Positions 1 through 13,663 of a DNA stretch of 64,000 nt are shown piece after piece. Numbering within the stretch: the first letter of the stretch is position 1; each line of letters begins with the position of its first letter. The DNA is from a bacterium. GTDB taxonomy: Bacteria; RBG-13-61-14; DATKZS01. The position numbers and the translations under genes were made by a program. The stretch covers positions 160,001 through 224,000 of the forward strand of contig CAXXFL010000003.1 of assembly GCA_963674965.2 (NCBI GenBank), read 5' to 3'. Below the pieces are notes generated by a model. The model was not told the DNA's origin. It ran no database searches and saw only the letters and a program-made list of their open reading frames with translations.

Positions 1-679
1 GGACGTGACGCTTTACTACCGGCGCGAGGAAAAAGAGATGCCGGCGCTTCAGGAGGAGATCGACGCGGCCCGCGAGGAGGGCGTCAAGTTCGAGTTCCTG
101 TCCAGTCCCACCAGGATCATCGAGGCGGGCGGCAAGGTCAAGGGCCTCGAGCTGGTCCGGATGAAGCTGGGCGAGGTTGACGGGAGCGCCAGGAAGCGGC
201 CCTTCCCGGTCGGCGGCTCGGAGTTCACCATCGAGGCCGACTCCATAATCTCGGCCATCGGGCAGGAGGCCGACCTCGAGTTCGGGCCCGGCAGGAGGCG
301 CATGGGCGTCGAGTTCGTGTCCAACCGAATCAAGGTGGACAAGAAGGGAAGGAGCCAGAGCACCAAGGTGTGGGCCGGAGGCGACGTGGTCACCGGTCCG
401 GCCATGGTTATCGACGCCATCCAGGGAGGAAGGGACGCCGCCATGGCCATCGACGAGTCCATTCGGGACCAGAACGGGGAAGAGCTGTGGAGGGAGACCC
501 CCGACGGGATCGAGATACCCTACTTCGAGGCCGCCGGGGAGATGGAAATGGTCCGGATACCCATGGCCCCCGCCAAGGAGAGGGTCAAGGACTTCAGGGA
601 GGTCGAGAAGGGCTACTCCAAGGAAGAGGCCATGCTCGAGGCCTCCCGCTGCCTCCGCTGCGACTTCCGTGGAGAGTGA
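1..679 (+). CDS. C-terminal part of a GltD-like FAD/NAD(P)-dependent oxidoreductase (5' end outside window; possibly an StnB/NuoF-GltD type subunit)
   Basis: YRREEKEMPA, EEGVKFEFL, ISAIGQ, WAGGDVVTGP..IDAI and C-terminal EASRCLRC motifs. Confidence 0.8.
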   Translation, partial: DVTLYYRREEKEMPALQEEIDAAREEGVKFEFLSSPTRIIEAGGKVKGLELVRMKLGEVDGSARKRPFPVGGSEFTIEADSIISAIGQEADLEFGPGRRRMGVEFVSNRIKVDKKGRSQSTKVWAGGDVVTGPAMVIDAIQGGRDAAMAIDESIRDQNGEELWRETPDGIEIPYFEAAGEMEMVRIPMAPAKERVKDFREVEKGYSKEEAMLEASRCLRCDFRGE

Positions 680-703
680 TCCCAAAAAAGGAGCAATGAG
701 CAG

Positions 704-3226
704 ATGACGGAAATAACGCTCACCATAGACGGCCGGTCGGTAACGGTGGAAAAAGGCAAGACCGTTCTCGAGGCCGCCAGGTCCGCCGGCATAGAGATAC
801 CCACCATATGCGCCCATGAGGACCTGCCTCATTACGGCTCGTGCCGGATGTGCATCGTCAACATCGAGGGCGTAAGGGGATACCCGACCTCCTGCACCAC
901 GCCCGCCGAGGACGGCATGGTGGTAAGGACCCAGACCGAGGAACTGAGGAGCCTGCGGGCGCGTATTCTCGAGCTCATGCTCTCGGGCCATCCCAACTCC
1001 TGCCTGGTCTGCGACCACCGGGAGGACTGCGAAAGATTGAGGCCCAAGCCCACCAAGTCGGGACGCGCCACCAGGTGCGGGGTCTGCTCGAACCGGGACG
1101 AGTGCGAGATTCGAGGCATGACCTTCCAGCTCGAGCCAGAGTACGAGCTCGAGCTCGCCACCATATACAAGGAAAGGGCGGTCGAAAAGTACGACCCCTT
1201 CATGGACCGCGATTACAACCTCTGCGTCCTGTGCGGGAGGTGCTGGAGGATTTGCGAGAAAATTCACGGCAAGCCCGCCATCTTCATCATCAACCGGGGA
1301 AAGAACGCCAGGCCCGGGACTTATTTCAACAAGAGCCACGTCGAGTCGGGATGCACCTTCTGCGGCGCCTGCGTGGACATCTGTCCCACCGGGGCCCTGT
1401 CCGACCGCTACGCCAGGTGGTACGGCTTCCCCGACGAGGAGGTCAAGTCCACCTGCGTGCTCTGCGCCGAGGGATGCCCCATCTGGACCCAGGTCTCGGA
1501 GTTTAAGACCGTGGCCAACCGCATGACCGGCTTCAACCGCGAGAAGAGGCTCTGCGCCATGGGCAGGTTCGCCTACGCCCAGTTGGTCAACTCCCCCGAC
1601 CGCCTGCTTCGGCCGCTGGTCCGGGAGAACGGCGAGCTTATTTCCGTGGACTGGGACGAGGCGATAAAGCGGGCCGCCGAGCTTCTTACGGGATGCAGGG
1701 GAGACGGCTTCGCGGTCATCGTGAGCGCCTCCGAGACGCGCGAGACCCGTTTCCTTTACAAGCGCCTGGCCAGGGAAGTTATGAAGGGACACATGATCAA
1801 CGTTCCCTTTGGCGGCTGCCTCGACGACGCCGAGCCCCGCGAGCTGGTGGCCGACCTTAAGTCGGGCAAGATAAAGTCGGTCATCTGCGCGGGCAACTAT
1901 CTCGACCCCGAGACGATCTCCCTTATCGAGGCCCTGGTGGTGGTCGATTTCCTTCCCTCTCCCTTGCTCGAGGCCGCCCACGTGGCGCTGCCCGCGGCGG
2001 TCCTGTCGGAAGTGGAGGGGACCTTCAAGGACCATCTGGGAGAGATCAAGGCCGTCATCAAGTCCAGCGTGGCCCCCGGCCAGGCCCGGGGCGGATGGCG
2101 CGTGGCCAGGGACCTGGCCAGGGCGCTGGGCGGAAAAGGGTTCGACGACGAGTCCCCCCGCGCCGTGACTCCCGACGTGGAAAAGGACAGGCCGCCCAAG
2201 GCCCCGAAGGTCTCGCCCCGCGACGGCCTCGACGCCCTGCCCGTGAGGTTCAGGGGACATTACATCGCCGACGCGGTTTGCGCGCTCGAGTCCATGGGCC
2301 TTCCCACCGCCCCGAGGACCAAGGCGGACCAGGCTTCCGCCGGCGGCTTCCTGGTGGTCGAGAAGGAGGAGCCCATCCCCAACTTCCATTTCCTCAAGAT
2401 CGAGGCCCCGGCCGTTGCGTCCTACGCCAAGCCCGGCCAGTTCGTGATCGTCATGACCAGGGAAACCTCGGAGCGCGTTCCCTTTACCCTGGTGGACTGG
2501 GACGCCGGGGAGGGGACCATTACCCTCGTGGTCGAGGAAGTGGGACGCTCGAGCCGCGAGGTGGCGGCCCTGAAAAAGGGAGACCGGATCGCCCACGTCA
2601 CCGGTCCTCTCGGGCTTCCCTTCCCGATCGAGAAAAAGGGGACCGTGGCCCTGGGCGGCGGCTGTTACGGCATCGGCGCCATCTATCCTATCGCCAAGGC
2701 CCTCAAGGAGGCGGGCAACAAGGTTATTACGACCCTCGAGGCCTCGAGCCATTACCTTCTTTACTGGGCCGATAAAATAGCCGCGGTCAGCGACGAGTTC
2801 CACGTGGCCACCAAGGACGGAAGCGAGGGCAGGAAGGGCGGCGTGCAGGAGGTCTTCATGGACCTTATCGAGAGGGGCGAGAAAATCGACGCCTTCGTCG
2901 CCATTGGCTGCACCTTCATGATGCGCATGGTCAGCGAGAAAACCAGGGACTCCGGAGTGCCGACCTACGTGGCCCTCAACCCCATCATGGTCGATGGGAC
3001 GGGCATGTGCGGCGCCTGCAGGGTTTCCATCGCCGGCGATACCAAGTTCGCCTGCGTGGACGGCCCCATTTTCAACGGCCACGACGTGGACTGGGACGAG
3101 TTGTTCTCGAGGCGGGGCGCCTACGGCGTGGTCGAGATCGAGGCCCTGCCCCAGGACGCGAAAATCAAGGGAGAGGGCGGACACAAGTGTCACGGCTCCT
3201 GCTCCCGCGACGACCATCAACGCTAA
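704..3226 (+). CDS. Fusion of a NuoG/FdhA/StnC-like Fe-S region (aa 1-~545) and an NfnA/SudB-type FAD/NAD/2Fe-2S subunit (aa ~549-840)
   Basis: IPTIC..GSCRMC..TSC (2Fe-2S); HPNSCLVC; CVLCGRC and CTFCGACVDICP; CVLCAEGC..LC; then AKPGQFVIV..ERVPFTL, GPLG, GGGCYG, NPIMVDGTGMCGAC..CVDGP. Confidence 0.85.
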   Translation: MTEITLTIDGRSVTVEKGKTVLEAARSAGIEIPTICAHEDLPHYGSCRMCIVNIEGVRGYPTSCTTPAEDGMVVRTQTEELRSLRARILELMLSGHPNSCLVCDHREDCERLRPKPTKSGRATRCGVCSNRDECEIRGMTFQLEPEYELELATIYKERAVEKYDPFMDRDYNLCVLCGRCWRICEKIHGKPAIFIINRGKNARPGTYFNKSHVESGCTFCGACVDICPTGALSDRYARWYGFPDEEVKSTCVLCAEGCPIWTQVSEFKTVANRMTGFNREKRLCAMGRFAYAQLVNSPDRLLRPLVRENGELISVDWDEAIKRAAELLTGCRGDGFAVIVSASETRETRFLYKRLAREVMKGHMINVPFGGCLDDAEPRELVADLKSGKIKSVICAGNYLDPETISLIEALVVVDFLPSPLLEAAHVALPAAVLSEVEGTFKDHLGEIKAVIKSSVAPGQARGGWRVARDLARALGGKGFDDESPRAVTPDVEKDRPPKAPKVSPRDGLDALPVRFRGHYIADAVCALESMGLPTAPRTKADQASAGGFLVVEKEEPIPNFHFLKIEAPAVASYAKPGQFVIVMTRETSERVPFTLVDWDAGEGTITLVVEEVGRSSREVAALKKGDRIAHVTGPLGLPFPIEKKGTVALGGGCYGIGAIYPIAKALKEAGNKVITTLEASSHYLLYWADKIAAVSDEFHVATKDGSEGRKGGVQEVFMDLIERGEKIDAFVAIGCTFMMRMVSEKTRDSGVPTYVALNPIMVDGTGMCGACRVSIAGDTKFACVDGPIFNGHDVDWDELFSRRGAYGVVEIEALPQDAKIKGEGGHKCHGSCSRDDHQR

Positions 3227-3250
3227 CCTAACCTGGAAGCGAGCGAGAAC

Positions 3251-4726
3251 ATGAACGACGAGGATAAAAAGAAGAAAAAGGAAAGAGTTCCACGACAGCC
3301 CATGCCCGAGCAGGACCCCCGCAGCCGGCGCAACAACATGAGTGAGGTCCCCTACGGCTACTCGCCCGAGACGGCCATGCTCGAGGCCTCCCGCTGCCTC
3401 AACTGCAAGAAGCCCAAGTGCGTCGAGGGATGCCCGGTGAACATCAACATCCCCGGCTTCATCAGCCTCATCGCCGCGGGCAAGTTCATCGAGGCCGAGG
3501 CCAAGCTCAAGGAGCAGACGGCCCTGCCGGCGGTCTGCGGCCGGGTCTGCCCGCAGGAGTCCCAGTGCGAGTCGAGGTGCATCCTGGGCAAGAAGCAGGA
3601 ACCCGTGGCCATTGGCCGGCTCGAGCGCTTCGCGGCCGACTACGCCCGGGAAAAGGGCGAGTTCAAGAAGCCCGAGATGGCCCCTCCCACGGGGAAGAAG
3701 GTCGCCGTCGTCGGGGCCGGACCCGCCGGCATCACCGTGGCGGGCGACCTGGTCCGGTGGGGACACGAGGTGGTCATGTTCGAGGCCCTGCATCTGCCCG
3801 GCGGGGTCCTCATGTACGGCATACCCGAGTTCCGCCTGCCCAAGGCCATCGTCCAGCACGAGATCAATAACTTAAAGGCCCTGGGCGTGGCCATCCACGC
3901 CGACCACGTCATCGGCAAGACCGAGACCGTCGAGGAACTTTTCGACCTGGGCTACGACGCCATCTTCGTGGGATCGGGCGCCGGGCTTCCCATGTTCCTG
4001 AAAATCCCCGGGGAGAACGCCATCGGCGTTTACTCGGCCAACGAGTTTTTAACCAGAATAAATTTGATGAAGGCCTACGATTTCCCGCGTTACGCCACGG
4101 CCCCCGTCAGGGCGCGCCACGTGATCACCGTGGGCGGCGGCAACGTGGCCATGGACTCGGCTCGCAACTCGATCCGGCTGGGGGCGAAATCGACCATCGT
4201 TTACAGGAGGAGCCGCGAGGAGATGCCGGCCCGGGCCGAGGAAGTCCATCACGCCGAGCAGGAGGGCGTCGATTTCCACCTCCTTACCAACCCCGTCAGG
4301 ATACTAACCGACGACAAGAACCGGGTCACCGGAATGGAGTGCCTGAAAATGGAACTGGGTGAGCCGGACGACTCGGGCCGGAGAAGGCCGGTACCCGTCG
4401 AGGGCAGCAACTTCGTCATCGAGGCGGACACGGTGATCATCTCGATCGGCAACCGACCCAACCCCCTCATACCACAGACCACTCCCACCCTCGAGACCAC
4501 CAGGTGGGGAACCATCGTGGCGGACGAGGAATCCATGGCCACCTCCATGGAGGGCGTCTTCGCCGGAGGCGACGTGGTCTCGGGCGCGGCCACCGTCATC
4601 AGCGCCATGGGCCAGGGCAAAAAGGCGGCCCTCAGCATCCATCGCTACCTAATGGACGCCGACCCCCCCGGCTATGAAAAACCGGAAAAGGAAGAGGAGA
4701 AAAAAGAAGCCGCCGCCGGGGCCTGA
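3251..4726 (+). CDS. nfnB: NfnB/SudA/GltD-type NADPH-dependent flavo-Fe-S subunit
   Basis: EASRCLNCKKPKCVEGCP, CGRVCPQESQCE, GAGPAG, YGIPEFRLPK, GGGNVAMD, FAGGD; directly follows the NfnA domain. Confidence 0.85.
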   Translation: MNDEDKKKKKERVPRQPMPEQDPRSRRNNMSEVPYGYSPETAMLEASRCLNCKKPKCVEGCPVNINIPGFISLIAAGKFIEAEAKLKEQTALPAVCGRVCPQESQCESRCILGKKQEPVAIGRLERFAADYAREKGEFKKPEMAPPTGKKVAVVGAGPAGITVAGDLVRWGHEVVMFEALHLPGGVLMYGIPEFRLPKAIVQHEINNLKALGVAIHADHVIGKTETVEELFDLGYDAIFVGSGAGLPMFLKIPGENAIGVYSANEFLTRINLMKAYDFPRYATAPVRARHVITVGGGNVAMDSARNSIRLGAKSTIVYRRSREEMPARAEEVHHAEQEGVDFHLLTNPVRILTDDKNRVTGMECLKMELGEPDDSGRRRPVPVEGSNFVIEADTVIISIGNRPNPLIPQTTPTLETTRWGTIVADEESMATSMEGVFAGGDVVSGAATVISAMGQGKKAALSIHRYLMDADPPGYEKPEKEEEKKEAAAGA

Positions 4727-4739
4727 CTTGGATCGCCAT
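4711..4739. repeat. 29-bp direct repeat, copy 1 (spans the nfnB stop codon)
   Basis: CGCCGCCGGGGCCTGACTTGGATCGCCAT identical to 5196-5224. Confidence 0.95.
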
Positions 4740-4754
4740 TTTGGTTCCCCGATA

Positions 4755-5020
4755 AGTCCCGTAGGGACGGCGGTCTATAGCCCAGGGTGAAGGCCGCGAT
4801 TGGCGGCCGAAACCCTGGGAGAAGATGACGATAAACAAATGAGTCCAAAAGGGACGGCGAAAATGAGGAAAGGCCCGGTAAAATACGGCCATCTTCCTGG
4901 CTGGAAATTTTGCGCCGCGCCTTCAGCGCTCGGGTTCTTGCTTGATCTCATACCCAGGGTTACGGACGCGGAGCGCGTCCTCCACCCTGGGCTGTAGATC
5001 ATCGCCCCATCCGGGGCTTT
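4755..5020. repeat. REP-like nested fold-back element
   Basis: CTATAGCCCAGGGTG..AACCCTGGG (4775-4820) mirrored by ACCCAGGGTT..CACCCTGGGCTGTAG (4952-4997); terminal hairpins GTCCCGTAGGGAC and GCCCCATCCGGGGC. Confidence 0.6.
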
Positions 5021-5056
5021 AAAGGAGCGAAAAGAGAGCGGTGGCCCGGCAGGTTT

Positions 5057-6238
5057 TCAAGAAACCGAGCGTGGTACCTCGAATCGGGATGGGCTGCGGG
5101 CCCGGATAGCTTCGCAAGAAACCGTTCGGGGCTTTGCGGGAGCGACAAGGACGGGGCGCCATCGGTATTCAATTTTCAAAGAGCAAGGCGGGTCGCGCCG
5201 CCGGGGCCTGACTTGGATCGCCATGCCGTCATCGCGTGAAAGCCGCGGGACGCCGGGTGACCCGTCCGGTTTCGTAAGAAACCGCGCGGGTCCCGCGAAG
5301 CGGGATGGGTACGGGGCCGCGTATTTCTCGTTACCGCGTATTTCCCACCTGCCCATACACCTATCCGGCTCCACCGGCCCCGGGCGGTTTTTGGCAAAAC
5401 CGGCCGGGGCACCCCACCAAGGCGATCGTCCTTTGCCAAAGGCCAGACAAGGACCGTCACGGGGGCGGGCGCAGTCGGACTCGAGGAAGTCAGCGCGAAA
5501 GACCGGCCAGCCGGATTTTTCGATCATCGATGCCATCGCGGCAAGGCCGCCGTCGCTCTCGACTTCAGCCAGATAGGGATTGCCTTTGACAGGACTGTAA
5601 ACCGGGCCGCGTAAAAGATAGACCAGGAGCAGGAACTGGAAAGCCTCGAAATCTTCGTCGGCGTGGGCCCGGGCGTAATAAAAACCGTCGATCAAAAGGG
5701 CCGGGCCGAAGCTGAAGGCCAGGTCGAAGGCGCGCTCGCGAGGAACGAACATTTCATCAAGGCCGGCGATGACCTCGTCCGGCACGTCCACAAGATAGTC
5801 GGGAACTTTGGCGGTCCTTAGCCACGTCTGTATTTGATAGCCCACGTGCTCCGGCTCGGGCGGGGTCCCGAAAAATCCATGGTCGAACTCGTCAAGCTCC
5901 TTCAACCCGGCTTTCACCGCCGGGCACTCGGGGCAAGTCGAGAGCCAGCGGCGGCATTGTATGGTCATCTCGCCGGACCGGGTCTCGGATAGTTTGATGA
6001 GGAAATTGCGGGCCAGGACGCGAGCGATCCGCTTGAACTTCACCGTGGACAGGCCGCACCGCTTGGCCCAGGCCCCGGCGGGCAAAGTCAGGGCCCGGTT
6101 CTCCTCCCCCTCGGCCCGCTCGGCCAGAATCTCGATAAGATAATAGTAAAGCCCATAACCCTCGAGCCCGCACCTCTTCATCACCTCGCTCTTGGCCCAG
6201 TCCCGGCCCGCGTCCACCTCATGCTTGAACCATCGCAT
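5057..6238 (-). CDS. DUF4373/Lin1244-like N-terminal domain protein (phage replication-initiator-like); C-terminal third probably runs into repeat DNA
   Basis: MRWFKH..D..K....GLEGYGLYYYLIEILAE signature; GAGGAG RBS upstream. Confidence 0.6.
   Translation of the reverse strand: MRWFKHEVDAGRDWAKSEVMKRCGLEGYGLYYYLIEILAERAEGEENRALTLPAGAWAKRCGLSTVKFKRIARVLARNFLIKLSETRSGEMTIQCRRWLSTCPECPAVKAGLKELDEFDHGFFGTPPEPEHVGYQIQTWLRTAKVPDYLVDVPDEVIAGLDEMFVPRERAFDLAFSFGPALLIDGFYYARAHADEDFEAFQFLLLVYLLRGPVYSPVKGNPYLAEVESDGGLAAMASMIEKSGWPVFRADFLESDCARPRDGPCLAFGKGRSPWWGAPAGFAKNRPGPVEPDRCMGRWEIRGNEKYAAPYPSRFAGPARFLTKPDGSPGVPRLSRDDGMAIQVRPRRRDPPCSLKIEYRWRPVLVAPAKPRTVSCEAIRARSPSRFEVPRSVS
5196..5224. repeat. 29-bp direct repeat, copy 2
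   Basis: Identical to 4711-4739. Confidence 0.95.
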
Positions 6239-6960
6239 GTTCTCCTCCTCGCAAAAAATGCCCTTCTATATATGGCGAAACGGGTGCATTTTTGTGGAGC
6301 GCCGGTTGACGAAATGCTGGGTTTACGCGCCCGCGATTATATACCGTTATGGTTAATTACATAATTCCGGGAGGTAAGGGGCGCCGAAAAAAATATCGTC
6401 TATCCCTAATTTACGACTTCAATTCCATCTCCGCTCGACGGTAAAACCCGGCCGTATAATAAATCAGGGTCGCCCACGCGTTTTGCGTGGGTGAGCGCGG
6501 CGAACGGGCTGAGCGTATAAAGGTTGATCGCATGTTGATTATACTCCTAGTGGCCTCGACACGGAGAGGGATGAGGCCTGAAAAGTGGGAGGAACTCAGC
6601 CCGCGGCTTACGCCGCCCATGCAGCACGCATAGATGGGCCACCCTTCCCTTTATCGACCAGGGTATCTGGGGACAGCATACCTTCTTAATAGTGGTAACA
6701 ATAAATATGATTAAGCGCAACGGGTAGCACACACATAGCTTGTGTGTGTTCGTCCTCAGGGAGCAGGACAGCATGTAGAGCATATGCTTGCAAGCATCTT
6801 CATGGGATCAGGCTGAACGTTTCTGACGCCAATCGTATTTAACGGACCTTTTTCAAGTGGAGGAGCTAAAAACAATCCGTGCTTAAATAAAAAATCCGTG
6901 AGAACGGGACGTTATAATGTTATCAATCACAATAACCATCACTAAGGAGGTGAAACCATT

Positions 6961-7422
6961 ATGACACAAGGCGTTCTTCCTTTCCATTACGAGTAGGCAA
7001 AAGTTGACGAGGGCTCGACTTCCCATGCGGGGCTTCCGGTCTACCTTGATCTTTTCGAGGCGTTCGGCCTTCGCGAGTCTCTCGACCGTCACGTTGGCGC
7101 TCGAGGCGAGCAGGCGCGCTCGGTGATGAAAGGCGACCTGGCCGGGGGCAAACTCCCCTCCGGCGATTTCGGCGAGAACGCGGCCTGGTGGATGTTCATG
7201 ATCCTGGCCTACAACCTTAACGCGGCCATGAAGGGCCTGGCGCTCGGCCAAGGCTTTCGGCGCCGGCGGATGAAGGCCGTCCGCTTCCACCTGATCAACT
7301 TGCCCGGCCGGGTGGCGAGCGGCTCCCGCCGTCTGAAAGCGCGCCTGGCCGAGGGCCATCCTTCGTTTCCGTTACCTCTGTCGGCGAGGCTTAACATCCT
7401 CGAACTCGCGGCCCCGAGTTAG
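6961..7422 (+). pseudogene. IS1380-family transposase remnant (internal deletion plus nonsense codon)
   Basis: AAGGAGGTG RBS; MTQGVLPFHYE* (TAG 6994-6996)..HAGLPVYLDL joined in frame to the C-terminus MKGDLAGGKLPSGDFGENAAWW..LAYNL..RFHLINLPGRV; central DDE region absent. Confidence 0.7.
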
Positions 7423-7653
7423 CTCGACAACCCCTTCTCCGCCCGCCTTAATCGTCAACCTTTGGCCTGCCTACGTCGCCGGCCTCGGCCGAGTTAGCCC
7501 ATTCGGACATTTTCGGCCCCCATCTCGATTTTTTACGTGGAGGCGACAATTAAAATTCGTCTTCTTCGAGAAATTCGCGCCATCCTGGCCGCAACGCACG
7601 CCTCCGAAAGGTGGTGAAGGGATTAGGCGGTGGATTATGGACGAATATCAGTC

Positions 7654-7682
7654 TTGACGCCGCCGGAGAACGGATTTATACT
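7654..7682 (+). promoter_or_regulatory. sigma70 promoter of tRNA-Arg
   Basis: TTGACG-N17-TATACT, 20 nt before the tRNA. Confidence 0.7.
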
Positions 7683-7702
7683 GTTAACTGTACGTAATTT
7701 GC

Positions 7703-7779
7703 GCGCCCTTAGCTCAATTGGATAGAGCGTGTGGCTACGGACCACAAGGTTGGGGGTTCGAATCCCTTAGGGCGTGCCA
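7703..7779 (+). tRNA. tRNA-Arg(ACG)
   Basis: Acceptor GCGCCCT/AGGGCGT, D-arm AGCTCAATTGGATAGAGC, anticodon arm TGTGG-CTACGGA-CCACA, GGTTCGAATCC, encoded CCA. Confidence 0.97.
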
Positions 7780-7875
7780 TTTTTTTGTCCGCTTTCAAGT
7801 AGTTATAAAAAATCAAGGCCCCAGCGCGGCTGGCTTTCGGGATACATCTCCCGCGTTTTTCTCCGATCAAAGCCA

Positions 7876-8178
7876 TTATTTTTTCCTCAGTTCGTCCATG
7901 GCCTTCTTCTGCATCATCCAGATGAAGAAGTCCGGGCTTAACCTGTTGATGTACCACAAGAACTTAGCCATGCCCGTCACCACGATAGTGGCCTTGTTCG
8001 CCTCGACGCCTTTCAGTATCTGACGGGCGCATTCTTCCGGGGGGAGGGCGTTTGTAAAAGGCTCGAGCATCTTTTCGCGCTCGAGGTTTCGAAGCTCGGT
8101 GGTATGCTTGATGGTCGTGTCGATAATACCCGAGGCCGCGCCAGTGACGATAGCCGTCTTCTCCGCGAAATAATCCAT
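7876..8178 (-). pseudogene. Short-chain dehydrogenase (SDR) remnant with an in-frame internal deletion
   Basis: KTAIVTGAASGI joined directly to IDT..PEECARQILKGV (C-terminal part); NAG and YxxxK region missing. Confidence 0.7.
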
Positions 8179-11346: not shown

Positions 11347-11542
11347 TGGTATACTTTTCTTGACCATCTCCGGCCGCTTTGCTATGATCCAACCACGGTG
11401 GATCGGCATAGGCGATGGGGGAAAGCCGCTCAGGCTAAGCCGTTTCGATCCAATGATATTCCTTTACTAATTGACCGATATTTATCGCTCCGGCCAAGGC
11501 CCGCGAAACCGGGGCGCCATTTCACGGCAAGGAGACCGGGCA

Positions 11543-13663
11543 ATGTCCGCGATTCCCGAGGACTCGCGAGAGGGTAAAGGCATACTCTCCAACCAGGTGT
11601 TTCGAGACCTGGCGACGATAGTGGGCGTCCTTTTGTCCATCGAGGCGGGCGGCGTCCTCTACTCGATCTATATTCTCGGCCTTTACAAAGACGGCCGATG
11701 GTCCTGGTACATCGCGCTCGACGTTTTGCTTTTTATAGCCGTTATGGCGGTCGGAGCTTTCCTGGGAGTGCGGTGGGGAAAGGACGTAAATGTTTTCGGC
11801 GAGCTTGTAAGGGCGGGAGAGCCCACCACCGTCGAGCAGGCCAAAAAGGCGGCCAAGGCCATTTTCGAGTGGCCCAAAAAAGCCGCCATATTTTATTGCC
11901 TGGCTTACTCCGCGGCTTTTATCTTATGTCTCGCCGTTCTTACACGCCTGGGACACATATCGGCGCGGGAATCGGGCGGCCTTATCGCCTTTAAGCTCAT
12001 CGCCATCTTCAGCATGAGCGTGATCGTCTACAGCGCCTGTAAAATGGTCGAGCGTCCCATGCTGGGCGAGGCGGTGGCAAGGCTCTTCGCCGGACGAGTT
12101 TACTCCTGGCCCCATTCCAGGATCGAAATCAGGTATAAAATCTTCGGCGTGCTGGCCATGGTCGCGGCCTACCTGATGTGCGGTTCAGTGCTCATGGGTT
12201 TCAGCCAGGCCAGACGGGCCCGCGCCGCTCAGCTTGAAAGCGATCTGACCTTCTGGCTGGGCCAAGCCGAGGAGTCCCTGAAAAGGCGGGGGCAAAAACC
12301 GGATTTCTCCGGGCTACCCGACAAGATCGGATCGTCGTCAAACCTCGTGGCCGTCTCCTCCTCGGGCGAGATACTGGCCGGTGACGTTTGGGCCCTTACT
12401 CCAGATGAACTCGAGATGATCGTTACCTCCGACGCCAAGGGACCCGTCATCGACAATAAAAACGGCCGCGTGATTATTCTCGGGGACCCTCTCGAGTCGG
12501 GCCATCGCCTCGCGGCGGTGGGAAAGCTTGAAGCCGGCGGCCTTTCCGCCAGGGTCCGTAACGACCTTATCGCGCTTCTCCTGGCCAGCCTGCTGCTGCT
12601 GGCGGCGGCCACCTACATTCTGGTCAACGATATAAACGGTCCCCTTCAGAACGTGCTCGAGTTCCTCCGCGCCATAGCCGACAACGAGACGGGCAAAAAC
12701 CTCAGGGCCTATTCCGAGGACGAAATGGGCGACTTCGCCCGCGAGCTGGCCAGGACCACGGACCTGTTGCGCGACCGCAACCGGAGCATCGAGCTCCTCC
12801 ATCACATCGAGGCCCTGTCCGAGTCGATCGAGATCAACTGCTCCTTTACCAAGAGCGCCGTCGAGGAGCAGGCCGCGGGCGCGCTCGAGCAGGGCGAGGC
12901 CGTTCACGACGCCCTCCAGATTTCGGCGGAGCTGGCCATCACCGCGGGCAGCATCTCCAAAAACGCCAACTCCCTGCTGCGGGACGCGGAGGAAAACCTC
13001 TCCTTTTGCACCGAAAGCCGCGAGCGCCTGACGAGAGTGCTCGAGGATTTGCGGTCCATGGCCGACTTCGTTCACGAGCTGTCCGACGTGGTGGTTTATC
13101 TGGGGAGGAATATCGGCGACGTCACCCTGGGCATGGAGATGATCGAGGAAATCAACGAGCAGCTAAACCTGCTGGCGTTTAACGCCCAGCTCGAGGCGGC
13201 GGGGGCGGGCGAGGCCGGGTCCAGGTTCATGGTCGTGGCGGAGGAAACGGCCAGACTGTGCCGGCGGGCGTTCGTCTCCGCCGAGGCCATCGGCGAGATG
13301 ATCGAGCAAACCAGGGACGCCATGGAACGAGCGGCCGAAACCTCGATGAAGGGCATCGAGATCGTAACCAAAAACGAGGCCATGATCGACGAGATAACGG
13401 CGACGATCGTCGAAATCGACGGGAGGGCGAGAGACTCCGAGGAAACGGCCAGGGGTATAGCGGCCATCACCGCCCAACAGGAGGCGGCCTGCGGCGAAAT
13501 GAACGAAACCATCGAGGGACTGAGCGCGGCGGCCGCTCAGATAAAATCGAACGCGGACAACGTCCTGTCCGCCATCACCAAGCTCGCCACCATGACCGTC
13601 CAGTTGGAAAAAGAGTTGAACGTGGCCAACCGCGACGGGGCCCAAAAGCGGACGATCAACTGA
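11543..13663 (+). CDS. Methyl-accepting chemotaxis protein with a multi-TM N-terminus and HAMP domain
   Basis: EQLNLLAFNAQLEAAGAGEAGSRFMVVAEE hairpin; DEMGD HAMP; AAGGAG RBS before ATG 11543. Confidence 0.85.
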   Translation: MSAIPEDSREGKGILSNQVFRDLATIVGVLLSIEAGGVLYSIYILGLYKDGRWSWYIALDVLLFIAVMAVGAFLGVRWGKDVNVFGELVRAGEPTTVEQAKKAAKAIFEWPKKAAIFYCLAYSAAFILCLAVLTRLGHISARESGGLIAFKLIAIFSMSVIVYSACKMVERPMLGEAVARLFAGRVYSWPHSRIEIRYKIFGVLAMVAAYLMCGSVLMGFSQARRARAAQLESDLTFWLGQAEESLKRRGQKPDFSGLPDKIGSSSNLVAVSSSGEILAGDVWALTPDELEMIVTSDAKGPVIDNKNGRVIILGDPLESGHRLAAVGKLEAGGLSARVRNDLIALLLASLLLLAAATYILVNDINGPLQNVLEFLRAIADNETGKNLRAYSEDEMGDFARELARTTDLLRDRNRSIELLHHIEALSESIEINCSFTKSAVEEQAAGALEQGEAVHDALQISAELAITAGSISKNANSLLRDAEENLSFCTESRERLTRVLEDLRSMADFVHELSDVVVYLGRNIGDVTLGMEMIEEINEQLNLLAFNAQLEAAGAGEAGSRFMVVAEETARLCRRAFVSAEAIGEMIEQTRDAMERAAETSMKGIEIVTKNEAMIDEITATIVEIDGRARDSEETARGIAAITAQQEAACGEMNETIEGLSAAAAQIKSNADNVLSAITKLATMTVQLEKELNVANRDGAQKRTIN

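Follow-up and report, generated by a model that had tools for sequence, protein, structure and literature searches.

A NuoG-like iron–sulfur connector fused to NfnA in a conserved operon: a candidate Bfu-family complex with NfnAB built in

In a bacterium of the RBG-13-61-14 lineage, one uninterrupted gene joins a NuoG/FdhA-like iron–sulfur module to a complete NfnA domain. It is followed by nfnB and preceded by a NuoF-type flavoprotein gene which ends in a GltD cassette. The window, i.e. the whole stretch of DNA that was analysed, comprises 64,000 nucleotides, and all genes described here lie on its forward strand. Our preferred reading, to which we give a probability of roughly 55% on the basis of sequence comparison, is that the operon encodes one complex of the Bfu (HydBC-core) family in which NfnAB is hard-wired by the gene fusion and which contains two bifurcation sites. 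The gene content appears to fit Bfu Types 2 and 3, with a BfuBC core, a BfuA without catalytic site and extra substrate-binding subunits encoded in the operon.

The fusion gene, bfuA~nfnA (704..3226), encodes 840 amino acids in a single open reading frame, which begins with ATG and is free of stops. The sequence AAGGAG (688–693) is found ten bases 5′ of the ATG, and the region around the fusion junction (2180–2420) is open throughout, without any stop. The frame call, Pfam and PRK06222 all agree with the original prediction of an Fe-S relay of the NuoG/FdhA type, a molybdopterin remnant and NfnA in one frame. At the N-terminus, residues 2–78 (707..937) form a [2Fe-2S] ferredoxin domain (Pfam Fer2_4, E 1.8e-23) whose C36, C47, C50 and C64 are invariant in the alignment of fusions. 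The His-ligated [4Fe-4S] motif follows (983..1033, S94-G-H96-PNS-C100-LV-C103-DHRED-C109-E), recognised from its sequence and from a Pfam match of residues 85–110 to positions 1–26 only of the 40 positions of NADH-G_4Fe-4S_3. Further downstream, a ferredoxin-like 2x[4Fe-4S] domain (residues 165–232, 1196..1399; Pfam Fer4_Nqo3) provides the cysteines C174/177/180/184 and C217/220/223/227. A [4Fe-4S] site of the molybdopterin-enzyme type (residues 246–293, 1439..1582) gives a weak Molybdop_Fe4S4 match below the cut-off (E 0.0075), and its C251, C254, C258 and C284 are invariant.

The His-ligated motif has a second copy, S119-G-R-ATR-C125-GV-C128-SNRDE-C134-E (1058..1108), in which the His is replaced by Arg. 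It had been predicted that an extra Cys-rich insert lies inside the His motif. The extra cysteines do exist, in each of the 23 Nfn-linked proteins whose N-terminus is intact (one from the window and 22 from loci), but the His motif itself is complete: C125-x2-C128-x5-C134 comes exactly 15 residues after H96-x3-C100-x2-C103-x5-C109, and this spacing is constant. All three cysteines are invariant in 21/21 aligned fusions. Copy 2 aligns with the canonical motif of 7t2r_A and with the post-GltD segment of 9bov_A, and its position is the site at which the GltD cassette is inserted in proteins of the StnC type.

Residues 300–480 (1601..2143) correspond to a remnant of the molybdopterin domain in which the Pfam profile is matched at its ends only and the dinucleotide-binding domain is missing. 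In the window protein, the Pfam Molybdopterin match covers residues 300–371 (profile positions 1–79 of 353, in two stretches), and in loci L008 and L009 profile positions ~242–352 are matched. Pfam finds neither Pyr_redox_2 nor Fer4_20 within the 840-aa protein. An assignment as formate dehydrogenase (Fdh-Bfu) was considered and rejected: only the ends of the molybdopterin profile are present, no Molydop_binding domain is found, and in L011, the sole long form examined, Pro-Leu replaces the catalytic Cys-His of FdsA. The BfuA connector thus appears to be a catalytically dead, NuoG/FdhA-like Fe-S module without a substrate site of its own.

The connector and NfnA are linked by a junction segment (residues 481–548, 2144..2347), which consists of a conserved block (P505-R506...R517-G518-H519..A522-D523) and a variable stretch. 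This segment, being partly poorly conserved, could be a mere flexible tether. The NfnA (NfnS) domain spans residues 549–816 (2348..3151). Its predicted start near nucleotide 2348 was accurate, as residue 549, encoded from nucleotide 2348, is the first one aligned to the P. furiosus NfnI small subunit (5jca_S). This alignment runs end to end, from residues 549–811 to residues 8–270 of 284 (E 2.7e-80). In addition, residues 551–816 match PRK06222 of NCBIfam with 333 bits against a cut-off of 220, and DHODB_Fe-S_bind of Pfam is found at residues 759–796. The ligands of the [2Fe-2S] cluster, D764, C769, C772 and C784 (DGTGMCGAC..C; nucleotides 2993–3055), are invariant in 21/21 aligned fusions. 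The same invariance holds for all cofactor motifs of NfnA, including the FAD motif ERVPFT and the nucleotide-binding loop GGGCYGIG.

The next gene, nfnB (NfnL; 3251..4726, 491 aa), has the GltD fold with two [4Fe-4S] sites and sites for FAD and NADPH. Its predicted identity is borne out by a TIGR01316 score of 604 bits (cut-off 472) and by the match to T. maritima NfnB (4ylf_B, E 6e-165); it scores 553 bits against T. maritima NfnB versus 299 bits against StnC. Glu125 occupies the position of the proximal-cluster ligand, where a Glu acts as ligand (Kumar 2023). This residue is invariant in 8/8 sequences, and counting over the alignment column gives Glu in 68/68 NfnB. In a quick tree, the NfnB of fused and short-split operons form one clade of 10 rows which spans phyla (SH-aLRT 99); L014 and L017 are labelled canonical in this tree, yet they are contig-truncated long forms.

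Upstream of the fusion, the window holds the 3′ end of bfuB~gltD (2..679), that is the last 225 codons of a 1031-aa flavoprotein; NuoE and most of bfuB are known through the full-length protein P0121 and related loci. P0121 (1031 aa) is 100% identical to the cut frame over all 225 residues, at 100% coverage. The frame matches Pyr_redox_2 (profile 179–291) and, at residues 194–221, Fer4_20 (profile 1–28), as expected for the GltD-like C-terminus predicted before the fusion, and it aligns with the C-termini of the L007, L008 and L009 flavoproteins. The NuoF domain anticipated in the upstream gene is present as well: in P0121, Complex1_51K (181–351) and NADH_4Fe-4S (462–546) precede Fer4_20 and Pyr_redox_2. 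Residues 22–561 of P0121 match subunit B of the A. mobile NiFe hydrogenase (7t2r_B, E 1e-211) and StnB (8oh5_B, E 3e-203). The protein also carries the GGPSG loop, which is conserved in bifurcating enzymes (Xiao 2025). Judged by these matches, P0121 is a flavoprotein of the bifurcating kind, with a NuoF core of the HydB/StnB type.

The C-terminal half of this flavoprotein is different in nature. Its GltD cassette occupies residues 554–1031, and the best PDB matches are the GltD cassettes of 9bov_A, 9n5u_A and 8oh5_C. Pfam finds no Fer4 dicluster in P0121, and the alignment to StnB stops at position 527 of 584. Stn and NfnABC reduce ferredoxin at the two-cluster domain located there (B3/B4; Kumar 2023), and relatives of the L001 type keep this C-terminal 2x[4Fe-4S] domain on the flavoprotein. 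In the window type, the ferredoxin-type two-cluster C-terminus therefore seems to have been swapped for a putatively non-bifurcating FAD/NADPH cassette of the Stn type. The segment RALKRF of P0121 aligns to AQLKSF of StnC and places a Lys at the position of StnC-K170; the numbering was cross-checked at C114, Y117 and R239. Lys is found at this position in 104/108 NuoF~GltD proteins, by alignment-column count. By these residue signatures, the two GltD modules of the operon differ in kind, NfnB being Nfn-type (Glu) and the NuoF-fused cassette Stn-type (Lys). The tail of P0121 (...EEAMLEASRCLRCDFRGE) is itself homologous to the NfnB N-terminus, with 21/41 identical residues between P0121 991–1026 and NfnB 12–52 (E 3e-7). 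Across loci, the C-terminus of the flavoprotein has been exchanged repeatedly between the ferredoxin-type domain and the NADP(H) cassette.

The Fer2_4 to DHODB_Fe-S architecture is not restricted to the window. All 120 clusters listed at 90% identity carry the fusion, with lengths of 789–861 aa, at least 92% query cover and 55–66% identity, and both PF13510 and PF10418 are present in every one of them. These clusters include cultured Desulfonatronum isolates with complete genomes. Single-frame fusions were also found in at least eight genome loci, in MAGs of Thermodesulfobacteriota, Planctomycetota, Hydrogenedentota and Nitrospirales. The carriers comprise sulfate reducers, Planctomycetota, Hydrogenedentota, Aminicenantes and others; judging from the names and titles of the listed matches, many are sulfate or sulfur reducers. 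In two proteins, P0248 (1079 aa) and P0250 (1023 aa), DHODB_Fe-S is attached to a molybdopterin-like domain of full length, so that by sequence the fusion recurs on a second, long-form scaffold. At the equivalent place, L007 and L009 have only one TAA stop and a GGAGG-led restart between the halves. A search for larger fusions (>1470 aa), a weak test, gave one unrelated 2549-aa match with 26% coverage and nothing else.

The surrounding operon is conserved too. The genome scan returned at least 601 stretches, mostly ordinary NfnA loci, and the 22 loci in which the connector lies beside nfnA are a sample rather than a census. Among these 22, NuoF is encoded directly upstream in 21/21 with upstream sequence, NuoE in 19/19 with enough sequence and NfnB in 21/21 with downstream sequence. 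A NuoE gene is also present in 4/4 related NuoF~GltD loci; at the window locus, it would fall outside the window. No shared flanking gene naming a further substrate was found with NCBIfam in 11 loci, for which 49 of 87 flanking ORFs, the proximal ones, were scanned, and three more flanking ORFs of L001 scanned in Pfam revealed no conserved neighbour. L061 has another arrangement of separate genes, canonical nfnAB with nuoE, nuoF and a gene of the true StnC type immediately after it.

From this gene content we derive the following picture. The operon would produce one soluble multi-subunit oxidoreductase into which a canonical NfnAB has been recruited and fixed by gene fusion. The flavoprotein of the HydB/StnB type would hold FMN and bind NAD(H), and a gene for a NuoE-like subunit should lie upstream. 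The C-terminus of BfuA would run directly into NfnA, with its FAD, NAD(H) site and [2Fe-2S] cluster, while NfnB would contribute the bifurcating FAD, an NADPH site and two [4Fe-4S] clusters. Two NADP(H)-type and two NAD(H) sites follow from the gene content, in keeping with the two NADP(H)-type and multiple NAD(H) sites originally proposed. Because no other substrate domain is present, the net reaction would involve nothing beyond NAD(H), NADP(H) and a carrier of low potential, and ferredoxin is probably the substrate beside the two pyridine nucleotides. The cluster chain of BfuA would conduct electrons between the flavin site of Nfn and the FMN/Fe-S site in the Bfu core. Both bifurcation centres would then operate in series and not independently, with an altered NADPH:NADH:ferredoxin stoichiometry compared with either enzyme alone. 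That NfnAB and the Bfu modules exchange electrons is deduced from their fusion and from the conservation of the operon; the assembly of the other subunits with the fused chain, the route and direction of the electrons and the stoichiometry are likewise proposals. Given a connector without substrate site, the common variant, if stripped of NfnAB, would lack a third substrate.

Several observations run counter to this picture. The window-type flavoprotein lacks the C-terminal ferredoxin-reducing two-cluster domain of Stn/NfnABC. The simple wirings of the window variant that were tried on paper lead either to a futile cycle or to mere transhydrogenation from NADPH to NADH, and they do not account for the second NADP(H) cassette. 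Moreover, NfnAB is fully competent alone, and the sequences do not require exchange with the Bfu core.

A more specific proposal, which we consider rather unlikely, is a two-stage bifurcation cascade within one complex. In the first stage, the NfnB flavin would split the electrons of NADPH, sending the high-potential one to NAD+ via NfnA and the low-potential one into the BfuA cluster chain instead of ferredoxin. In the second stage, the FMN/Fe-S site of Bfu would split the electrons arriving from BfuA again, between NAD+ and ferredoxin. The sum would be 4 NADPH + 3 NAD+ + 2 Fd(ox) = 4 NADP+ + 3 NADH + 2 Fd(red). With physiological potentials of −380 mV for NADPH, −280 mV for NADH and −500 mV for ferredoxin (Schut 2022), our own arithmetic indicates that such a cascade could drive the carrier to about −680 mV in the forward direction. 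In reverse, NADPH could be made to about −335 mV, with ferredoxin giving a quarter of the electrons and not half. The reverse mode would therefore be a low-gear, ferredoxin-sparing transhydrogenase, and the swaps at the flavoprotein C-terminus would amount to a switch of the final low-potential partner.

The operon might also encode a functional analogue of Stn, in which NfnAB serves as an NADPH-oxidising input only, like the GltD of StnC, and the sole bifurcation occurs at the FMN/Fe-S site of Bfu. Both electrons would go down the BfuA chain, and the net reaction would not differ from the usual one of 2 NADPH + NAD+ + 2 Fd(ox). In Bfu enzymes of Types 2 and 3, extra subunits indeed merely feed BfuA (Schut 2022), and the flavin of a GltD fold can cease to bifurcate even though the sequence remains similar, R239 being conserved yet displaced (Kumar 2023). 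The common L001 type, with one NADP(H) site only and the ferredoxin-type C-terminus kept on BfuB, is also compatible with this scheme. We nevertheless find it improbable, since NfnB invariably has the Nfn-type Glu instead of the Stn-type Lys and is far closer to T. maritima NfnB than to StnC, and since an input module would have no need of an entire NfnA whose FAD, nucleotide and [2Fe-2S] motifs are invariant. Even less probable is a tether between two autonomous transhydrogenases, with a fusion that only co-localises or co-regulates them and no electron passage in between. The unfused nfnAB and Stn-type genes of L061 and the partly variable junction segment are in line with such a tether. Against it stand the fusion, which arose or persisted on two scaffolds, the separate clade of Nfn-linked NfnB across phyla and the [4Fe-4S] site beside the lost molybdopterin site, which is still invariant; in addition, the Bfu part of the common variant has no substrate-binding module besides NfnAB.

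Another physiological acceptor, such as sulfur/polysulfide, Fe(III) or some other oxidant, is suggested by the activities that were originally reported for the homologues SudAB, NsoABC and SfrAB. In the accessible portion of Kremp 2020, NsoABC (NADPH-dependent sulfur oxidoreductase), SudA and SfrAB are the nearest relatives of Stn subunits, and many carriers reduce sulfate or sulfur. This seems very unlikely, as Pfam reveals no extra substrate domain, no conserved neighbour gene was found in the 11 loci, and the SudAB-type PDB matches are deposited as Nfn-type NADH-dependent ferredoxin:NADP oxidoreductases. Lastly, the 840-aa frame could be a biologically meaningless assembly error or recently lost stop; the single in-frame stops in L007 and L009 imply that one mutation suffices. 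The uninterrupted frame is conserved in the 120 listed clusters and at least eight loci, complete genomes of cultured Desulfonatronum included, and both readings are therefore refuted, which leaves them a negligible probability.

Returning to the preferred reading of one Bfu-family complex with a built-in NfnAB, its interest lies in how the two systems have been viewed. NfnAB and Stn/NfnABC are treated in the literature consulted as unrelated, alternative solutions for redox balancing (Kumar 2023; Xiao 2025). A conserved operon in which both are covalently joined breaks this Nfn/Stn dichotomy, and, next to benzoyl-CoA reductase, it would give a second natural example of a machine that contains two unlike bifurcation modules. 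For the study of chained bifurcation sites it would be a tractable system, because its substrates would be limited to pyridine nucleotides and ferredoxin and Desulfonatronum hosts are in culture. In the literature searched, including the accessible parts of three genome papers, neither the fusion nor NuoF~GltD is described; Supplementary Table 1 of Schut 2022, which perhaps classifies them, lies outside this search. In NCBI, the name of the 840-aa protein reflects its C-terminal domain only, and the 1031-aa protein is called just NuoF, so that a metabolic reconstruction would record a common Nfn plus a stray piece of complex I.

Among characterised enzymes, StnABC / Nfn-BfuABC (S. ovata 8oh5; C. 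saccharolyticus 9bov; T. sibiricus 9n5u) share the HydB-type flavoprotein core with the window operon. Further likenesses are the NuoG-like connector with an apparently dead molybdopterin domain, the GltD cassette with Lys at the K170 position and the second Cys motif of the connector, which aligns to the post-GltD segment of 8oh5_C as it does to that of 9bov_A. The layout originally stated for Stn, with GltD on the NuoF-like subunit, needs correction. In S. ovata Stn, as described in the accessible parts of Kremp 2020 and Kumar 2023, GltD is inserted in the NuoG-like StnC and not in the NuoF-like StnB; the NuoF~GltD of the window is therefore a different topology. In the window, GltD forms the end of the flavoprotein, in place of the two-cluster domain that reduces ferredoxin, whereas in Stn it sits in the connector. 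Furthermore, the window connector is fused to a full NfnA with a full nfnB next to it, whereas Stn has no NfnA homologue and Nfn no HydBC homologue (Kumar 2023). Thermococcaceae carry either Nfn or the Stn-type enzyme (Xiao 2025).

NfnAB/NfnSL (T. maritima 4ylf, P. furiosus 5jca) resembles the window proteins in the Asp+3Cys [2Fe-2S] cluster, the proximal Glu and the FAD and NAD(P)H motifs. In contrast, NfnA is here the C-terminal domain after a 548-residue NuoG-like module and shares its operon with genes for homologues of HydBC. The window form is not among the four Nfn architectures given in the accessible part of Liang 2019. For the connector, FdsA of R. capsulatus (6tg9_A) is the best full-stretch PDB match, over the first 360 residues, where the alignment ends (E 2.4e-60 for the full-length query, E 6.7e-57 for residues 1–400). 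Both proteins display the same order of [2Fe-2S], His cluster, two [4Fe-4S] and molybdopterin-type [4Fe-4S]. The window protein differs in lacking most of the molybdopterin domain and in its extra CxxCx5C, at whose aligned position FdsA has no Cys. A precedent for the proposed combination is the class II benzoyl-CoA reductase Bam complex of G. metallireducens, which likewise combines a HydBC-type module with a second, unrelated flavin bifurcation module. According to a preprint abstract and section 5 of Schut 2022, HydBC-type confurcation is coupled there to HdrA-type bifurcation. In Bam, the second module is thus of the HdrA type and serves aromatic ring reduction at tungsten, whereas here it is of the Nfn type and no further catalytic subunit is encoded.

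Nucleotides 1–4726 of the window are occupied by three open reading frames, called on the same strand and spaced 24 nt apart. The first is truncated at its 5′ end (2–679, +), the second encodes 840 amino acids (704–3226, +) and the third 491 (3251–4726, +). The motif AAGGAG is located before the ATG at 704. When the sequence is read through the proposed fusion junction, the frame stays open and no stop codon is found. The observed fusion is confirmed: NfnA and the connector, the NuoG/FdhA-like Fe–S module BfuA, are one polypeptide. On the opposite strand, a 1286-aa open frame (2–3859, −) runs antisense to the three redox genes at a G+C content of 62–68% and is taken to be a by-product of base composition, not a gene.

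The 840-aa protein opens with a [2Fe–2S] domain (residues 2–78, Pfam here and for the following domains) and the NuoG His-cluster motif (85–110, profile positions 1–26 of 40). A two-cluster ferredoxin-like domain (165–232) and a weakly matching molybdopterin-type [4Fe–4S] region (246–293) follow. Of the molybdopterin domain, only profile positions 1–79 of 353 (residues 300–371) and a second short stretch remain, while the NfnA/PyrK [2Fe–2S] motif is found at residues 759–796. Rhodobacter capsulatus FdsA gives a single continuous alignment to the first 360 residues. At the other end, PRK06222 (NCBIfam) covers residues 551–816 with a score above the cut-off, residues 549–811 match the small subunit of P. 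furiosus NfnI end to end and residues 564–808 align with T. maritima NfnA. Across 21 aligned fusions all expected ligands are invariant, including D764, C769, C772 and C784 of the NfnA cluster and C251, C254, C258 and C284 of the molybdopterin-type site. In the sole connector with a full-length molybdopterin-like domain that was examined (locus L011), Pro-Leu replaces the catalytic Cys-His of FdsA.

The original prediction placed an extra Cys-rich insert inside the His-cluster motif. The insert is present, but the motif itself is complete (H96-x3-C100-x2-C103-x5-C109) and the additional cysteines lie downstream, as C125-x2-C128-x5-C134 starting exactly 15 residues past it. The window keeps this spacing, as do all 22 related loci whose N-terminus is intact, among them the long and split forms. 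SGHPNSCLVCDHREDCE and SGRATRCGVCSNRDECE are identical at 8 of 17 positions, with Arg in place of His, and their sequences read as a tandem duplication. FdsA, in contrast, has a loop of comparable length without cysteines at the position of the second motif. As a lone query, the second copy aligns to the canonical motif of the A. mobile NiFe-hydrogenase subunit A, and also to the part of S. ovata StnC and C. saccharolyticus NfnA that comes after the GltD cassette. The cassette of StnC-type proteins therefore lies between the two motif copies.

The truncated frame corresponds to the C-terminal portion of a GltD fold and closes with a stretch matching the beginning of the Fer4_20 profile (Pfam). 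Its complete counterpart is the database protein P0121 (1031 aa), which is 100% identical across all 225 residues of the cut frame and carries the NuoF domain expected upstream. The domain scan of P0121 returns the NuoF FMN domain (residues 181–351), the NuoF [4Fe–4S] region (462–546), Fer4_20 (554–638) and Pyr_redox_2 (653–949). Residues 22–561 match bifurcating BfuB subunits, StnB among them, with E values of 1e-211 to 1e-197; the alignment to StnB ends at position 527 of 584, which leaves P0121 without the terminal two-cluster domain. Residues 563–1027 score best against GltD cassettes (9bov_A, 395 bits; 9n5u_A, 372; 8oh5_C, 338) and lower against T. maritima NfnB (328 bits). Since the tail of P0121 (991–1026) is homologous to residues 12–52 of the window NfnB (21 of 41 identical), the cassette is permuted relative to NfnB, and the Stn-type cassette appears likewise permuted. 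The matches listed include at least 100 clusters of NuoF~GltD proteins of this kind, about 1030–1050 aa in length. A subset of about 1090–1240 aa (P0151, P0158, P0189, P0190, P0199, P0200 and others) is annotated with a PF00072 receiver domain in precomputed Pfam listings; if these listings are true, a redox enzyme subunit would carry a signalling domain.

The third frame encodes a canonical NfnB (491 aa; TIGR01316, 604 bits), which matches T. maritima NfnB with an E value of 6e-165 and the StnC cassette with only 9e-88. Kumar 2023 reports a Glu ligand at the flavin-proximal cluster of NfnB and, in StnC, which has lost bifurcation, Lys170 at this position. With StnC numbering verified in the alignment by C114, Y117 and R239, the residue is Lys in P0121 and Glu in both T. 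maritima NfnB and the window NfnB. Counts of the alignment column gave Glu in 68 of 68 NfnB-like sequences (the window and 67 locus matches) and Lys in 104 of 108 NuoF~GltD proteins, the others being Ser in L008, Glu in P0224 and two gapped rows. This signature distinguishes the two GltD modules.

The region downstream of nfnB is rich in repeats. The nfnB stop codon lies inside the first copy of an exact 29-nt direct repeat (4711–4739 and 5196–5224), which is followed by an 81-nt inverted repeat (4739–4819/4953–5033, 70% complementary), three copies of a 21-nt hairpin-like unit (at 4752, 4839 and 6361–6381) and several direct repeats of 20–30 nt at 5007–5318. Rfam places a sub-threshold match to Acido-Lenti-1 RNA at 4755–4787 (−), scoring 26 bits where the gathering score is 37. 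A 393-aa frame overlapping this region (5057–6238, −) has no match in Pfam. It adjoins a low-G+C patch at 6500–8000 (0.47–0.50 against about 0.62–0.68 around it), which contains a tRNA-Arg(ACG) at 7703–7779 and may mark where foreign or mobile DNA begins or ends. Farther on, a 730-aa frame (11471–13663, +) with a methyl-accepting chemotaxis signalling domain is unrelated to the fusion operon.

The fused architecture is conserved. At least 120 fusion clusters at 90% identity were listed (789–861 aa, query coverage of at least 92%, identity 55–66%), and both end domains are present in all 120 of those listed. Carriers include Desulfonatronum isolates, among them D. lacustre and D. thiodismutans, and metagenome-assembled genomes labelled Desulfobulbus, Phycisphaerales and Omnitrophica. 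In a library clustered at 50% identity, four representatives are full-length short fusions, and two (P0248 and P0250) are long fusions in which the NfnA motif is joined to a full molybdopterin-like domain. Another protein, P0255 (1405 aa), has two tandem NuoG/FdhA-like units, the first complete with Molydop_binding and the second opening with another Fer2_4 at residue 835.

A genome scan returned at least 76 loci, mostly ordinary nfnAB because one search pattern is NfnA-specific. The connector adjoins nfnA in 22 of the loci listed (tblastn with seven reference segments): eight are single-frame fusions, two have a single TAA between the halves, followed by a GGAGG-led restart, one is cut by a contig end and eleven have a connector of 755–893 aa and a separate nfnA. 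The gene immediately upstream encodes NuoF in 21 of 21 linked loci with sequence there, NuoE was found in 19 of 19 and NfnB follows downstream in 21 of 21; domain content was confirmed by Pfam in seven loci (21 proteins). Flanking genes vary between loci. They include an alanine dehydrogenase/PntA-like gene that overlaps nuoE at its end (L011, 6494–7606), acyl-CoA dehydrogenase and two CoA-transferase genes upstream of the operon (L001, 4223–7288) and a small HdrC/QmoC-like protein, also upstream (L009, 5048–5482, −); none of these neighbours is common to different loci. In a quick tree of 68 NfnB rows, with near-full-length NfnB from 64 of the 76 loci, the NfnB of fused and short-split operons form one 10-row clade (SH-aLRT 99) spanning several phyla. 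Those of long-form operons fall in three separate places elsewhere.

The C-terminal module of NuoF is less constant: loci L007–L010 carry the GltD cassette, the others a ferredoxin-type two-cluster C-terminus. In a quick tree of the NuoF core (24 rows), the proteins with GltD do not form a single group, three or more changes are required by well-supported branches, and L006 (ferredoxin-type) and L010 (GltD-type) are near-identical sisters. This module has therefore been exchanged repeatedly. The position of the cassette varies too, between the motif copies in L061 and after the ferredoxin-like domain in L065. Locus L061 (10001–19431) encodes a canonical nfnA-nfnB pair, after which nuoE, nuoF and a true StnC-type gene (1226 aa; Fer2_4, Fer4_20, Pyr_redox_2, Fer4_Nqo3 and a molybdopterin remnant) come in the same orientation, so that Nfn and Stn are co-encoded but unfused. 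The 743-aa protein of L065 (234–2465) has the N-terminal Fe–S modules of the connector, including the duplicated Cys motif, and a GltD cassette replacing the molybdopterin domain, a third cassette position.

Three observations argue for a single enzyme made of all four or five products: the occurrence of the same fusion on two scaffolds, the invariance of the operon and the separate grouping of NfnB in the tree. NfnAB is the only substrate module that the Bfu part (the HydBC-core flavin-bifurcating family) has in the common variant, and is therefore best read as a third-substrate module of the kind that Schut 2022 describes for Type 2 and 3 enzymes. The NfnAB module, unlike the StnC cassette, has lost none of the features of a bifurcating Nfn; the assembly is then predicted to have two bifurcation-competent sites. 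In the Stn structure described by Kumar 2023, the distal cluster of GltD hands electrons over to the cluster at the His-motif region. By analogy, NfnB, a GltD homologue, would most likely dock near the duplicated motif with NfnA carried along on its tether. Electrons could alternatively enter at the invariant C251–C284 site beside the lost molybdopterin site, which is equally possible. For the variant in the window, we found no wiring that accounts for a second, Stn-type NADP(H) cassette replacing the ferredoxin-reducing domain.

The NuoG~NfnA fusion, the Nfn-plus-HydBC operon and the NuoF~GltD fusion are undescribed in the literature found by full-text search, a corpus with most subscription journals outside it. 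The original prediction of a Stn–Nfn hybrid is supported by the genes, the fusions and the residue signatures, with one correction. In real Stn the GltD module is carried by StnC, whereas in the window it sits on the NuoF flavoprotein; the system is a variant within the Bfu family and not a separate kind of system.
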